Shown piece by piece: positions 6,653 to 40,720 of a DNA stretch of 56,562 bases. Every line of letters starts with the position of its first letter. The stretch's first letter is position 1. A program made the translations under genes and the position numbers. The notes below the pieces were generated by a model. That model ran no database searches. It saw only the letters and a program-made list of their open reading frames with translations, and was not told the DNA's origin. This DNA is from a virus: the IMG/VR virus record IMGVR_UViG_3300045988_087505, positions 1 to 56,562 of that record; one strand, written 5' to 3'.

Positions 6653-7357
6653 ATGAACGAACTAACACAGAAATATCTCGACAGCAGAGAAGTGGCTGAA
6701 ATGGTAGACAAGCAGCATAATGACTTACTCAAAGATATTCGTAGATATATCGAGCAATTAGGTGAGGGAAATATTCCCCACACCGACTTTTTCACAGAAA
6801 GTCAGTACACAGACAAGTCTAACAGACAGAAACCTTGTTATCTTGTCACAAAGAAAGGGTGCGAATTTATCGCACACAAGTTGACCGGTGTAAAAGGAAC
6901 GGAGTTTACAGCGAAGTACATAAACAGATTTCACGAAATGGAAGATGTTATTAATACACAGCTTCCAAGTGGAAATGATTTAATTGCACTTGCTGTCATT
7001 GAGGCACAGAAAATGCTTGCTGAAAAGGATAAGCAGATTGAGGAAATGAAGCCAAAAGCAGAATTCTTTGATGCCGTAGCAGACAGCAAGACGGCAATTT
7101 CCATGAATGAGGTATCAAAAGTTCTCGGAATTAAGGGGTACGGAAGAAACAATCTGTTTGAGTTTCTTAGAAATAACGGAATACTGGACAGATGGAATGT
7201 ACCATATCAGCGATACATTGATGCAAGGTGGTTTCGAGTGGTCGAACAGAAGTATATGAAAAACGGAGAACCTTTTGTATCAACCAAAACACTGGTTTAT
7301 CAGAAGGGAGTTGAAGCAATTAGAAAGAAAATTTTGGAAGGAGGCGAGATCGCATGA
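6653..7357 (+). CDS. Antirepressor / Rha-family regulator with a KilAC (ANT) C-terminal domain
   Basis: LDSREVAEMVDKQHNDLLKDIRRYI (Rha-like N-terminus) and FFDAVADSKTAISMNEVSKVLGIKGYGRNNLFEFLR (KilAC). GGAGG RBS before the ATG at 6653. Confidence 0.8.
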   Translation: MNELTQKYLDSREVAEMVDKQHNDLLKDIRRYIEQLGEGNIPHTDFFTESQYTDKSNRQKPCYLVTKKGCEFIAHKLTGVKGTEFTAKYINRFHEMEDVINTQLPSGNDLIALAVIEAQKMLAEKDKQIEEMKPKAEFFDAVADSKTAISMNEVSKVLGIKGYGRNNLFEFLRNNGILDRWNVPYQRYIDARWFRVVEQKYMKNGEPFVSTKTLVYQKGVEAIRKKILEGGEIA

Positions 7358-33399: not shown

Positions 33400-33476
33400 A
33401 TTTTTCCTTTCTGGTCTGCCATCATCAGAGCCGGGAGACCATCTCGCGGCTGACGCTCCACCTTGGAGCGTTTCGG

Positions 33477-33731
33477 CTAATATCTGCAAGGCTTTTCATA
33501 GCGGATGACCGCTACCGTCTCGCCCGTGCTTGCAAGTGTTCCCCAGCCGTTCCACATTGGACCATTTAAACCTAATAATTTAGGCTGGTTATATAGTTCT
33601 TCTCTCTGGCTTTCTGCAAGTCTGCCGTTATTATAGCCATAAACAAGGCTTTCAAACTCTTCTACTGTTTTTATTTCTTCTGGTAAATCATATACACAGG
33701 TATTTCCGTTTTCCAATGTTCCGATAATCAT
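33477..33731 (-). CDS. Hypothetical protein (84 aa)
   Basis: First gene of the minus-strand operon, divergent from the HTH gene. Confidence 0.55.
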   Translation of the reverse strand: MIIGTLENGNTCVYDLPEEIKTVEEFESLVYGYNNGRLAESQREELYNQPKLLGLNGPMWNGWGTLASTGETVAVIRYEKPCRY

Positions 33732-36008: not shown

Positions 36009-36297
36009 AGCTGTTAAAAAACATATACACAATTAAAGACAATTTAAGAACCCTTTAAATACAAGGCTTTTAATGGTTTTAATATGTCTGATTTATCGGT
36101 TAAACTTAAATTTTTCCGATAAATAGGATAGACAAAGAAACAATAAAAAGAATATTCAGAAAACAAGGCGGACGATGCCGGCATGGGGTGGGGGTTTTAA
36201 ATACCCGCATATGCCACCCAACTAAGCAGCCTAAATTCAGAAAAAATAAAAAAGGGTTAGAAATAGTTTCTTGATTTCTTGTGAAGAATAAAAACAT

Positions 36298-36369
36298 TGG
36301 GCTATCGCCAAGTGGTAAGGCACAGGACTTTGACTCCTGGATGCGTCGGTTCGAATCCGACTAGCCTAG
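36298..36369 (+). tRNA. tRNA-Gln (anticodon UUG)
   Basis: 72-nt cloverleaf folded by hand: TGGGCTA/TAGCCTA acceptor, anticodon arm CAGGA-CTTTGAC-TCCTG, T arm GTCGG-TTCGAAT-CCGAC. It closely parallels bacterial tRNA-Gln. Confidence 0.9.
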
Positions 36370-36519
36370 CTAGGTGGAATAAAACCACCGCGATCATATT
36401 ATCAATTAAATCCTTTCGCCCATTAGCAAAAAGCTGGTAAGGGTACTAAGTACCCGATGGGTAAAAACCATGATTTGACTGGTGTTTAACTTTTTGTTGG
36501 ATGCCGGTCAAATGTTCAA
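36370..36519 (+). ncRNA. Structured non-coding spacer (possibly one more degenerate tRNA-like fold at 36406..36478)
   Basis: GGTGG/CCACC hairpin; GCCCAT/ATGGGT enclosing the GGGTAC-taa-GTACCC palindrome; TTTGACTGG/CCGGTCAAA stem; no credible ORF. Confidence 0.4.
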
Positions 36520-36708
36520 GAATCAATAGCTCAAAATGGAAAGAGCGTGGTAAAACGAATGCCAGTCGCAGTCCGGGGTTCCAGAAGCACCGAAAGGCAA
36601 AAATTAGCTGAAGTTGGTGAAATTCCATTTGTGTGGTGACGTAGGGAAGCGGGTAATCCCTGGGATAAGCTTAGGAAACGAGTGCGGGTTCGAATCCCGT
36701 TTGATTCA
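36520..36708 (+). ncRNA. tRNA-like element (Arg-ACG-like frame) with a ~115-nt insertion between the anticodon arm and the T arm
   Basis: Acceptor GAATCAA/TTGATTC; D arm GCTC-aaaatggaaa-GAGC; anticodon arm TGGTA-AAACGAA-TGCCA (A33 instead of U33); T arm GCGGG-TTCGAAT-CCCGT. Confidence 0.35.
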
Positions 36709-36711
36709 TTT

Positions 36712-36795
36712 GCCGATATGGGATAAAGGTAGTCCAGTAGCTTGCTAAGCTATCCAACAGAAATGTTGTGCAGGTTCGATTCCTGTCTATTCGGT
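36712..36795 (+). tRNA. tRNA-Ser(GCU)-like, type II, with an imperfect acceptor stem
   Basis: Anticodon arm GTAGC-TTGCTAA-GCTAT; long variable arm CAACA-gaaa-TGTTG; T arm GCAGG-TTCGATT-CCTGT. The acceptor pairs only if one T is bulged. Confidence 0.5.
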
Positions 36796-36818
36796 TAATA
36801 AAAAGAGGAGTGAATATA

Positions 36819-37025
36819 ATGGCGCAAGGCGTACATCCGGTAGACCCGGACAAATTTTCAGAAGCATGTGCAAAATATTTAAACAGAGAATGCAACATGA
36901 TTGATGCATCTAAAATTGCGGGAATGAGTCCGCCGACATTTTCAAAATATTTAAAAATTTTGTTGTTGGGTGATAAGTTTCCGGACAATCTTTTTGGAGG
37001 AAAAAGAAATGAAATGGCTGATTAA
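36819..37025 (+). CDS. Small HTH-like protein (68 aa)
   Basis: GAGGAG RBS; IDASKIAGMSPPTFSKYLK. Confidence 0.55.
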   Translation: MAQGVHPVDPDKFSEACAKYLNRECNMIDASKIAGMSPPTFSKYLKILLLGDKFPDNLFGGKRNEMAD

Positions 37026-38947: not shown

Positions 38948-40720
38948 GTGCTTTTCTTGAATTCTGAATTAGAATCACTGATAAATGATTGTGAAAAATA
39001 CATTACCCAAAACGGAATAGATGAAAATGTCATAAATGCTTATTGTGATGTGTGCCAGTTGGCTAAGAATGAGAAAGAAACCGACACTATGCTTAGATGT
39101 ACGGATAGGACGAAAACTCTTATTAACAGCTATTGCAAGGCACAATTCGGCGATAAAGGCATATGGGATGTAGAAAAGGTTATACAGGACAGCGGGAGTG
39201 AATATGAACTGCTTAATCAATTCTACGAAATACTAAAATTAGAATCCTATTATCGACTTGAAAGTTTTATTTACTATATGGAACGCAAGCGGTCATATGG
39301 AAAGAGATTTTATTATCCAAGGCGAAAGACATTAAAGATAGTCATACAGGACTTAGAGGACTTGGAAAACAGAAAGATTAAGTTTTACGGATTGTCAATG
39401 CCATCAAGAGTTGGAAAGTCTACTATTTGTATATTTTTTCTTTCTTGGATAGCATTACGCAGACCAAACAGCCATAGTGCAATGGGCGGTCACTCTGGAA
39501 TACTTGCTAAAGGGTTCTATAAGGAACTTATGAACCTTTTTACAACAGAAGAATATACATTTGAGGAATTATCCTCATACTGGCACCCAGAATATGCCAA
39601 TAAACCATTGCCAACAGATAAGTCTGCTGACGAATTTACAATCACTCTTGGCGACCCTGATAGATTTGCAACAGTTACCTGTAGAGGTATAGACGGAACG
39701 TGGACAGGTGCGGTCGATGTATCTAAGGACGGATATTTATATGTAGATGATTTGGTAAGAGACAGAGAACATTCATTATCGCCTAGTCGAATGGAAAACA
39801 CATTCCAAGAATACCTAAATAAGATGGTTGACCGAAAGAATGATGGAGCCAGGGAATTAATGGTCGGTACATTATGGAATGTCCTTGACCCACTAGAACG
39901 CCTTAGAAAGCAATATGAGAATGACCCACAATATAGATTCAGGCGAATACCCGCACTTAATGAGAATGATGAAAGCAATTTTGATTATGAAATCAACGGA
40001 TTTTCCACGGAATATTATAAAGATATGCGTGAAAAACTTGATAAAGCTGAATGGATGGCTAAATTTATGCAAAAGCCATTCGTGCGTGAAGGGTTGCTGT
40101 TTCCGGAAAACGAACTAAGGTTCTTTAATGGAGATTTTGAAGAGGATATTGTTGATAAGGAACGAAAGATGATAGCGGTGTGTGACCCGGCATTTGGCGG
40201 CGCAGATAACTTGTCAATGCCAGTATGTGCGGATTTTGGCGGCAAACGCAAGTATATCGTTGACTGGGTATATAAAAAGGGCACACAGGCAGTCACAGTT
40301 CCGTTGGTTGTAGCAGCTATTAAGAAGCACTACATAACAGAACTGCACATAGAACAGAATGCCGGAGGTAAATTAATGACTGATAGTATCAAAGCAGAAA
40401 TGAGAAAGCAAAATATTTATTTCTGTCAGATAGTTCCATATTATGCAAATACCAAAATGCCTAAAGAGGAAAAAATCAAAGGATATTCTGACAGAGTTAA
40501 GGAATTATTCATTTTTCTTGTTAGCAGACAGTACCTAGCTATTGATGACAGGCCAACTTACATAAGGTCACAGATGTACCAAGATGCGATGGACGAATTT
40601 ACAATGTATACATCAGAGGGCAAAAATCCACACGATGATGCAAGCGATTCTATTACACAGCTTGCAATAGTTGCAGACAAAAAAGCGACACAGACAATCA
40701 TTATGTCAAGTCCAATATAG
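38948..40720 (+). CDS. terL: Terminase large subunit
   Basis: Walker A-like GLSMPSRVGKST, an ATPase plus nuclease-sized protein immediately upstream of the portal region. The start (GTG 38948 or TTG 38957) is uncertain. Confidence 0.8.
   Translation: MLFLNSELESLINDCEKYITQNGIDENVINAYCDVCQLAKNEKETDTMLRCTDRTKTLINSYCKAQFGDKGIWDVEKVIQDSGSEYELLNQFYEILKLESYYRLESFIYYMERKRSYGKRFYYPRRKTLKIVIQDLEDLENRKIKFYGLSMPSRVGKSTICIFFLSWIALRRPNSHSAMGGHSGILAKGFYKELMNLFTTEEYTFEELSSYWHPEYANKPLPTDKSADEFTITLGDPDRFATVTCRGIDGTWTGAVDVSKDGYLYVDDLVRDREHSLSPSRMENTFQEYLNKMVDRKNDGARELMVGTLWNVLDPLERLRKQYENDPQYRFRRIPALNENDESNFDYEINGFSTEYYKDMREKLDKAEWMAKFMQKPFVREGLLFPENELRFFNGDFEEDIVDKERKMIAVCDPAFGGADNLSMPVCADFGGKRKYIVDWVYKKGTQAVTVPLVVAAIKKHYITELHIEQNAGGKLMTDSIKAEMRKQNIYFCQIVPYYANTKMPKEEKIKGYSDRVKELFIFLVSRQYLAIDDRPTYIRSQMYQDAMDEFTMYTSEGKNPHDDASDSITQLAIVADKKATQTIIMSSPI

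Follow-up and report, generated by a model that had tools for sequence, protein, structure and literature searches.

We identified in a phage tRNA array a 189-nucleotide (nt) RNA that has an intact, selected tRNA-like fold and cannot decode, and that very probably belongs to a conserved family of tRNA-like RNAs of phages, Bacillaceae and Bacteroidota. The array lies in the IMG/VR record IMGVR_UViG_3300045988_087505, analyzed over its whole length of 56,562 nt (hereafter the window), and the RNA occupies positions 36520-36708. A first-pass annotation, made from the letters alone, had described the interval as one functional and several aberrant tRNA-like RNAs and had proposed a check with ARAGORN and Rfam. 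ARAGORN called a single tRNA in the whole window, the textbook tRNA-Gln(UUG) already noted in the first pass, which is a working tRNA and heads the array. Besides this gene, Rfam found a partial tRNA match at 36719-36786 (model positions 8-63, 32.2 bits), and nothing else among 4227 families reached E = 10 between 36150 and 36900. As first described, there is no credible open reading frame (ORF) after the tRNA-Gln, none longer than 60 amino acids being present in 36370-36800 (translation table 11). The first description proved accurate nearly throughout, and a functional tRNA followed by tRNA-like or structured noncoding RNA is a part of its interpretation that stands, but the middle element is not aberrant. 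A blastn search of 36250-36850 against 50,697 phage records matched the tRNA-Gln alone.

The tRNA frame at 36520-36708, with the acceptor, D, hairpin and T arms recognized in the first pass, can be read directly in the sequence (Table 1). It keeps the features of a tRNA core: a 7-bp acceptor, U8, A14, a D loop with G18G19, the T loop, a 15-48 pair and a discriminator A. A readable 7-nt anticodon loop with U33 is missing; the loop of the window reads AAACGAA and has A32 and, as the annotation had pointed out, A33. Also in line with the annotation, the insertion is outside the anticodon loop, with 119 nt (first given as ~115) between the hairpin and the T arm. Over these positions ARAGORN made no call and the Rfam tRNA model gave no match, even at E <= 10.

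Homologues of the RNA came from two pattern searches. The opening was a two-anchor pattern (odd loop plus T loop) that returned one true homologue, in an unrelated viral contig of 158 kb. Comparison of this copy with the window revealed shared blocks in the insert, AAGCACCGAAA and GUAGGGAAGC, and a second pattern of 21 bases that required both blocks exactly matched 9 viral loci, at least 119 metagenome loci and at least 120 genome loci. From these we extracted 201 distinct full-length elements; this and the family counts that follow are among the matches listed. Every extracted element had the 7-bp acceptor, U8, a D arm with GG and a T arm. The ‘anticodon’ hairpins of the family have 4-5 bp and loops of 7 to ~17 nt that start with AAAAC, AAACG or AAAAG, and none of the loops carries U33. 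The insert measures 100-130 nt, longer in a few members. At the 15-48 pair, 164 members have A-U and 10 have G-C, and the discriminator is A in 150 of 185. Position 3:70 is mostly C-G (146/185, with 6 G-U), making an alanine or tmRNA-type (transfer-messenger RNA) identity unlikely.

Compensatory changes, which the annotation had suggested looking for, are present in an alignment of 21 non-redundant type-A members (the type of the window, itself included). RNAalifold returned a consensus with the cloverleaf arms, a long stem closing the insert, a junction with two invariant strands and two hairpins; inspection led us to add another hairpin of 2 bp and a GNRA tetraloop closed by a single pair. 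Over the resulting 44 pairs, 95.7% of the cells hold standard pairs versus 81.1% when columns are shuffled (0/500 shuffles reach the observed value), 26 pairs change on both sides compared with 14.7 in shuffles, and the covariation score is 0.437 compared with 0.150. Sliding the 3′ partners by 1-3 columns lowers pairing to 34-47%. The acceptor and the stems are among the helices that covary. Even the pair closing the GNRA loop varies in this manner (C-G in 11, G-C in 6 and A-U in 3 sequences). As predicted, the variable domain combines a long stem that covaries, a junction of which two strands are invariant, three small hairpins and a mini-hairpin with a GNRA cap. It is also the most conserved part of the family, and its invariant purine-rich strands, which by eye may form a loop-E-like internal loop, suggest a protein-binding surface. 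Taken with its type-A flank, block 2 (CCGUAGGGAAGCG) is similar to helix 45 of 16S rRNA in the 5′ strand and loop of that helix (CCGUAGGGGAAC), probably by chance. We set aside this and two other likenesses seen by eye, to the GTPase-centre RNA of 23S rRNA and to human Y RNA stems, as probable coincidences.

A covariance model built from the relatives aligned end to end at 36520-36708, where the score itself proves little, as the window sequence belonged to the seed. More informative are the scores of a type-A-only model on other members: types B, C and O aligned end to end with 48-70 bits (only 31 for two loci, L121 and L124), among them three loci labeled L269 (55 bits), L230 (65 bits) and L102 (55 bits), all end to end, while ordinary tRNAs scored at most ~32 bits. 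No family of Rfam 15 matched the tRNA-shaped RNA, at gathering score or at E <= 10, and the known families considered as candidates (tmRNA, Y RNA, T-large, Flavo-1, riboswitches, ribozymes and introns) were rejected on the same grounds. That the insert covaries and stands at the same position in every member speaks against the proposal of the first pass that the middle element is a tRNA with a novel insertion element.

The types differ in their genomic surroundings (counts again among the matches listed). Type A, with 101 loci, is mostly solitary in Bacillaceae chromosomes and includes a phage subgroup in tRNA arrays. Type B (29 loci) is found in arrays of at least three tRNAs on phage-like contigs in 24 cases. 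Type C (99 loci) is mainly found in Bacteroidota and has an SPFH/Band-7 gene within 3 kb at 53 loci and an RtcB gene at 13; the SPFH gene almost always lies downstream on the same strand, and further neighbors are an RNase-H-like protein, Ro60-vWA-like proteins and a divergent WYL regulator. In the Flexithrix locus L269 the order is SPFH, RNA, RtcB, with nothing else between both genes. Two of the Bacteroidota SPFH/RtcB loci (L102 ~400-600 and L230 ~6800-7000) contain a second RNA between the b7a-like RNA and SPFH, with the permuted order of YrlA (T arm, closed acceptor hairpin, D arm) and a CUGAUGAG motif ahead. A chromosomal copy in Bacillus tropicus (L213 1848-2006, ...GGGAAGCGTG/TTCGAATCCCGT...) is truncated, with the variable domain missing its 3′ part and the T stem its 5′ strand, which indicates that the family decays in some genomes. 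A Bacillus member of the family had no phage match.

Because the Bacteroidota homologues adjoin SPFH/Band-7 and RtcB genes, they are very probably the ‘band 7-associated tRNA’, or b7a-tRNA for short, a predicted, unvalidated RNA located beside Band-7 and RtcB according to a preprint (bioRxiv 10.1101/312249, citing Burroughs and Aravind, 2016). By extension, the tRNA-shaped RNA of the window is probably the same RNA. The sole mention that we found in the literature is this one bioinformatic prediction tied to Band-7/RtcB operons, and our search found no experimental test of it. The same preprint states that b7a-tRNA and YrlA seem interchangeable in Band-7/RtcB operons (bioRxiv 10.1101/312249).

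We tentatively propose that the RNA serves as a cofactor of a repair system or as a means to hijack it. The array would be transcribed as a single precursor from which RNase P and RNase Z would excise the tRNA-shaped body, the tRNA fold conferring stability; excision and stability via a tRNA body have been shown for YrlA-type mimics (PMC4201824). The variable domain could then be the platform that binds an RNA-damage or repair protein such as RtcB, SPFH or a Ro60-type protein. As the phage encodes none of the three, it would supply the RNA to the host machinery, using or blocking it during infection. Among the three options raised in the first pass (decoy, tRNA with an insertion element, structured phage RNA processed via its tRNA shape), the last one fits best. 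Taken as a whole, mechanism included, we consider this the best explanation and lean towards it, in an overall judgment that blends a very probable family membership, a probable identity with b7a-tRNA and a doubtful mechanism.

Several observations weigh against this explanation. The identity with b7a-tRNA is argued from gene position alone, and the window and type A have no SPFH or RtcB neighbors (0/101 type-A loci within 3 kb, among the matches listed), so the link to repair rests on homology to type C. Further, a tblastn search found no SPFH, RtcB or Ro60 homologues in the window. A scan for promoters next to the array returned nothing convincing, and the promoter, processing, stability and partners of the RNA are all inferred. 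Folded as a single sequence, 36520-36709 is no better than its shuffles (z = -1.4); with the similarly weak value of 36710-36800 (z = -2.2), such folding cannot decide, and the case rests on the relatives. These were collected with a block pattern that misses diverged members and that fixed the bases of four predicted pairs inside the invariant blocks, where invariance is uninformative; since the pattern required AAGCACCGAAA exactly, the constancy of block 1 says nothing about pairing.

Alternatively, the tRNA-shaped RNA, and perhaps the chimeric element described below, could be a decoy that baits anticodon nucleases or tRNA-fragment sensors. Phage tRNAs can counter tRNA-cleaving defenses, and both the complete retention of the tRNA core and the location in a phage tRNA array, the setting of about half of the family members (among the matches listed), would suit a bait. 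We regard a decoy as unlikely, however, because the ‘anticodon’ loop, where such nucleases usually cut, differs among members in both size and sequence and is like no real anticodon loop, because the best conserved part is a variable domain that a simple decoy could do without, and because Bacillaceae and Bacteroidota carry family copies in their chromosomes. The RNA could instead be a Y-RNA-like partner of a Ro60/TROVE-type protein which, as with YrlA, gates or tethers an exoribonuclease. The YrlA-like RNA adjoining the family RNA at Bacteroidota loci and the reported b7a-tRNA/YrlA interchangeability (bioRxiv 10.1101/312249) point in this direction, as does block 1 (GCACCGAAA), which loosely recalls the Ro-binding GGUCCGA / GNCGAA motif (PMC4201824), although ACCGAAAG misfits GNCGAAN0-1G at its first base in a comparison by eye only. 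Ro60-vWA-like genes do occur within 3 kb of the family RNA, but at only 6 of the 242 loci listed (three of type B, two of type C and one of type A), and the window has no Ro60 homologue. Given also that the RNA ends at its acceptor, a topology unlike that of permuted YrlA, and matches no Rfam family, a Y-RNA-like role seems quite improbable.

The invariant junction strands, the GNRA tetraloop and the multi-helix junction would equally befit a ribozyme or ligand-sensing aptamer on a tRNA scaffold, whether self-cleaving, self-splicing or metabolite-binding. Self-cleaving theta ribozymes are known beside phage tRNAs (PMC10879173), a hammerhead lies 3 kb away in the window phage, and the Lysinibacillus member gave a sub-threshold twister-sister match (17.8 bits, E = 0.49). 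This score is half of the gathering score, though, the window element has no ribozyme or riboswitch match even at E = 10, and removal of the insert would still leave a non-decoding tRNA, all of which makes a catalytic or sensing role very unlikely. Least credible is a real tRNA-Arg(ACG) with an intron or small mobile insertion, or its dead pseudogene. The loop AAACGAA does contain ACG, the element sits among tRNA-Arg genes in several arrays, and its A20 and A73 fit arginine identity. Yet A32 and A33 are conserved family features rather than lesions, the loop of other members reads AAACGGA or AAAAGAA or is 12-17 nt long, and the insert, covarying and conserved across phyla, keeps a fixed position in the variable arm. 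Nor does it have terminal inverted repeats, and its 119 nt are too few for a group I intron and outside the anticodon loop. For lack of such repeats we also rejected an insertion of the miniature inverted-repeat transposable element type, and we rejected an attP remnant as well, given that pairing extends over the entire frame and that the serine recombinase lies 12 kb off.

Table 1. Elements of the tRNA array and its surroundings in window coordinates (MFE, minimum free energy).
Feature	Position	Strand	Basis or remark
tRNA-Gln(UUG), canonical, first array gene	36298-36370	+	ARAGORN; Rfam tRNA, 63.3 bits at 36298-36369
Small hairpin GGUGG-AAUAAAA-CCACC	36373-36389	+	Sequence, MFE fold; directly 3′ of tRNA-Gln
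UCCUUUC, window counterpart of CUCCUUUC	36411-36417	+	Precedes three-way junction; anti-Shine-Dalgarno-like
Three-way junction: P1 GCCCAU/AUGGGU, Pa AGC/GCU, Pb GGGUAC/GUACCC	36418-36462	+	MFE folds
18-bp hairpin with TTTGACTGG/CCGGTCAAA, no U tail	36473-36513	+	MFE fold; just before tRNA-shaped RNA
tRNA-shaped non-decoding RNA, b7a-tRNA-like family type A	36520-36708	+	Homologues, alignment, covariation, covariance model
Acceptor GAAUCAA/UUGAUUC, 7 bp	36520-26 / 36701-07	+	
D arm GCUC-AAAAUGGAAA-GAGC, GG loop	36529-46	+	Preceded by U8, A9
A-rich-loop hairpin UGGUA-AAACGAA-UGCCA	36548-64	+	
Variable-position domain, 119 nt	36565-36683	+	
Block 1 of variable domain, AGAAGCACCGAAA	36584-36596	+	
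Block 2 of variable domain, GUAGGGAAGCG	36641-36651	+	
T arm GCGGG-UUCGAAU-CCCGU	36684-36700	+	Discriminator (36708) is A
5′ three quarters of tRNA-Ser(GCU): acceptor 5′ strand, D arm, GCU anticodon arm, long variable arm	36712-36770	+	
3′ end from relatives' UUA-anticodon tRNA: T arm onward, acceptor 3′ strand, trailer	36771-36797	+	
TerL	38948-40720		2.2 kb downstream of array

The stretch around the tRNA-shaped RNA is a temperate-phage tRNA array remodeled by recombination. The window, with a G+C content of ~37% and a serine recombinase gene, looks like a complete temperate phage, probably one of gut Firmicutes, and encodes an endolysin, an antirepressor, RecT, DnaB, the large serine recombinase, TerL and a portal protein. 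The array had first been placed between terS and terL, which did not hold up: TerL is some distance downstream (Table 1), and the ORFs flanking the array had no match to a small-terminase family. A type II hammerhead ribozyme (33410-33478, minus strand; 66.5 bits versus a gathering score of 37) is located in a minus-strand gene block ~3 kb upstream of the array. For comparison we used 80 IMG/VR loci (labeled with L-numbers) that were fetched with TerL and have 64-99% protein identity to it. Most of those with enough upstream sequence have a variable tRNA array headed by tRNA-Gln(UUG), 2.5-4.5 kb upstream of TerL; ARAGORN made no tRNA call in 7 related loci, mostly truncated ones. Behind the Gln gene, the relatives have 90-700 nt gaps and differ in the tRNAs that follow, which are drawn from Ser(GCU), Tyr(GUA), Ile, Glu, Lys and Met and in many loci include one with a UUA anticodon.

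This last, ochre-suppressor-like tRNA is present in L010 (2684-2755), L004 (3487-3558) and about 15 further related loci, which otherwise look standard-code; in L013 the same gene has UAA (Leu). The Rfam int-alpA RNA (RF02996, 44-52 bits), absent from the window, follows in L010 (2759-2826), L004 (3562-3629), L023 (2431-2498) and L006 (2931-2995), where it starts 3-5 nt past the last tRNA (UUA or Ser), and in L014 (3170-3237), where it is ~280 nt downstream of the last tRNA called. Upstream of the array, a hairpin element (GGCAUGGGGUGGGGG...CCCGCAUAUGCC) at ~36180-36260 of the window has nhmmer matches in more than 30 related loci. In these relatives it stands ~1 kb upstream of the tRNA-Gln, implying that the window lost the intervening DNA; the gap is ~600 nt in L002, a contig nearly identical to the window.

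The tRNA-shaped RNA appears to be a recent arrival in this phage lineage. Blastn and nhmmer searches with the RNA, its insert or the spacer against the 80 TerL-related loci, and an exact 26-mer scan of viral contigs, retrieved the near-identical contig alone, and the type-A model found the RNA in none of the other 79 loci. The slot 3 nt before the tRNA-Ser, which contains tRNA-Tyr(GUA) in L004, L005 and L028, holds the tRNA-shaped RNA in the window. The RNA therefore behaves as an exchangeable module of the array.

Between the tRNA-Gln and the tRNA-shaped RNA, the spacer folds with an MFE of -50.1 kcal/mol (z = -4.8), a value that none of 200 shuffles equaled. All helices listed in the first pass are there (GGTGG/CCACC, GCCCAT/ATGGGT around GGGTAC-taa-GTACCC and TTTGACTGG/CCGGTCAAA). 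The degenerate cloverleaf drawn in that pass at 36406-36478 was not supported, as the relatives keep the three-way junction instead. The architecture of three helices (P1, Pa and Pb) emerged in the window and in 8 of 15 relatives, each folded independently by MFE, after the tRNA-Gln or another early tRNA, and the P1 helices differ in sequence: ACCUCA/UGAGGU in L004, CCCCAC/GUGGGG in L032, ACCAAC/GUUGGU in L047 and GCCAC/GUGGU in L046. In many relatives Pb carries a T-loop-like GGUGCGAGACC, whereas that of the window is plain; 3′ of the junction a U run is frequent in the relatives and an A run is present in the window. Because the hairpins misalign in a MAFFT alignment of the spacer motif, RNAalifold predicted no structure from it, and the junction showed in the separate folds. 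As modeled, the three-way junction is conserved within the phage lineage and is a small lineage-specific motif; neither the window nor the relatives gave an Rfam match for it.

Just 5′ of the junction, CUCCUUUC is present in 33 of 34 listed distinct relative sequences (L049, with CCCCUUUC, is the exception). The 34 represent 57 instances captured with (C/U)CCUUUC as the anchor, a filter that the window junction escaped, so that it was added by hand; where the 57 sites have CUCCUUUC (e.g., L004 ~2655), the window reads AUCCUUUC (36410-36417). CUCCUUUC is identical to the core anti-Shine-Dalgarno sequence at the 16S 3′ end, and its minus strand reads as a strong ribosome-binding site behind which the ORFs are not conserved. 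We discarded a small minus-strand ORF as the reason for the conserved GAAAGGAG, because ORF lengths and sequences vary among relatives. The two hairpins flanking this region had no sequence homologue in the 80 TerL-related loci (blastn, nhmmer). Relatives have a different hairpin at the site of the one next to the tRNA-Gln, and the predicted 18-bp hairpin ahead of the tRNA-shaped RNA could be a processing site or a stabilizing hairpin.

The element 3′ of the tRNA-shaped RNA (36712-36797) is, as judged from its sequence, a recombination chimera of two tRNA genes. The annotation had rightly seen here a Ser(GCU)-like tRNA of type II whose acceptor pairs with a bulge, and the partial Rfam match at 36719-36786 corresponds to this tRNA. 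Its 5′ portion matches the tRNA-Ser(GCU) of L010 at 58 of 59 bases and most Ser(GCU) genes of relatives with 93-96% identity (blastn). From the T arm onward it departs from the Ser gene and follows the UUA-anticodon tRNA, of which the 3′ end alone survives in the window (CAGGTTCGATTCCTGTCTATTCGGTTA versus CAGGTTCGATTCCTGTCTATCCGATTA in L010, 25/27 bases). In relatives these genes stand ~330 nt apart, and recombination between the two T arms thus took out the spacer along with most of the UUA tRNA, a deletion of ~400 nt. The result has a type II cloverleaf, a GCU anticodon and a long variable arm, without the regular 7-bp acceptor that the 3′ strand of its own gene would provide: the acceptor pairs only via a bulge and a G-U pair, and ARAGORN made no call. 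A chimeric origin explains both traits. The element is thus tRNA-like, as first described, but its aberrance is that of two joined tRNA genes. Where its 3′ end departs from the UUA tRNA (one C-to-U and one A-to-G change), pairing with the Ser 5′ strand is better in both cases, and these two base changes suggest that the chimera may still be under selection.

Other tRNA frames interrupted by large inserts were found, at least three classes of them besides the b7a-type. They include L006 2789-2926 (also L007 and L015), with the acceptor and T arm of the UUA tRNA and a 67-nt insert; L046 ~2549-2690 (also L058 and L065), which has a core in common with L006 (...UUGCCAAGUGAUAGGC...GUAAUCAGCAACAA...); and L033 4751-4885, with three T-arm-like hairpins. 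The inserts of these frames are unrelated to that of the window. Metagenomic arrays that hold a b7a-like RNA contain more such frames (L116 2435-2577 and 1647-1798; L090 8282-8421; L105 6613-6859; L118 5536-5770; L224 2769-2935), the two in L116 having another conserved insert in common (AAACCCAGCUCUCCUACUCG...CAUCAAGACGGAGCCUACA). There seemed to be a tmRNA-like tag frame in the interrupted tRNAs of L006 and L046, which does not apply to the window element.

With hundreds of loci, textbook covariation and 11-nt invariant strands, a family absent from Rfam 15 deserves attention. The RNA kind was already predicted once, in 2016, and the chimera is ordinary phage mosaicism. What may be new is the phage-array context, the Bacillaceae copies, the variable-domain structure in its details and the replacement of a tRNA gene by a module. 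The phage copy indicates that the RNA travels alone as a module in tRNA arrays, whose ‘gaps’ canonical-tRNA callers report as empty although several conserved RNA kinds sit there. It is speculative, and in our view rather doubtful, that phage arrays commonly carry non-decoding tRNA-shaped RNAs acting in trans on the host RNA-damage and repair machinery, as a new class of counter-defense RNA. If so, the targets could be RtcB, SPFH, Ro60, tRNA-fragment sensors or anticodon nucleases, with the tRNA shape serving processing and stability and the variable-arm domain being the working part. One temperate phage with one 189-nt gene makes a small, tractable test system, which could reveal the role of the SPFH/RtcB RNA cofactor and whether phages use it against tRNA-directed defenses.

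As in class II tRNAs (Ser, Leu and bacterial Tyr), extra structure leaves from the variable region, but in the window family it is a branched element of 100-130 nt rather than a hairpin of 10-20 nt, and the decoding loop is lost. Like tmRNA, which ARAGORN did not find in the window, the RNA couples a large domain foreign to tRNAs with an acceptor and T arm of the tRNA kind; it differs in having full D and ‘anticodon’ arms and no conserved tag reading frame. Group I introns of tRNA genes, with cores of at least 200 nt, interrupt the anticodon loop, whereas the 119-nt insert separates the anticodon-like arm from the T arm, and no intron family of Rfam matched the array at E <= 10. Theta ribozymes, which resemble those of hepatitis delta virus (HDV), are likewise small structured RNAs within gut-phage tRNA arrays (PMC10879173), and phage relatives carry suppressor-like tRNAs, but no HDV-like fold abuts a tRNA 3′ end here; Rfam gave no ribozyme match in 36150-36900 at E <= 10, in a search that possibly did not include theta and was not complemented with a descriptor. 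YrlA is circularly permuted, running from a Ro-binding 5′ strand through V, the T arm, a closed acceptor hairpin and the D arm to a Ro60-binding stem (PMC4201824). The window RNA instead ends at an open 7-bp acceptor stem, has its extra domain in the variable arm and has no Ro60/TROVE gene within ~4 kb on the same strand. Both nonetheless mimic tRNAs, having D and T arms as well as a 15-48 pair that covaries, occur in RtcB-type repair operons and phages, and are probably handled by tRNA enzymes. From b7a-tRNA the window copy differs in its location, a phage tRNA array with no SPFH/RtcB neighbor. Like b7a-tRNA, it is a predicted tRNA-like noncoding RNA, and its homologues, with the common blocks AAGCACCGAAA and GUAGGGAAGC, fill the SPFH/Band-7-RtcB intergenic space in Bacteroidota.

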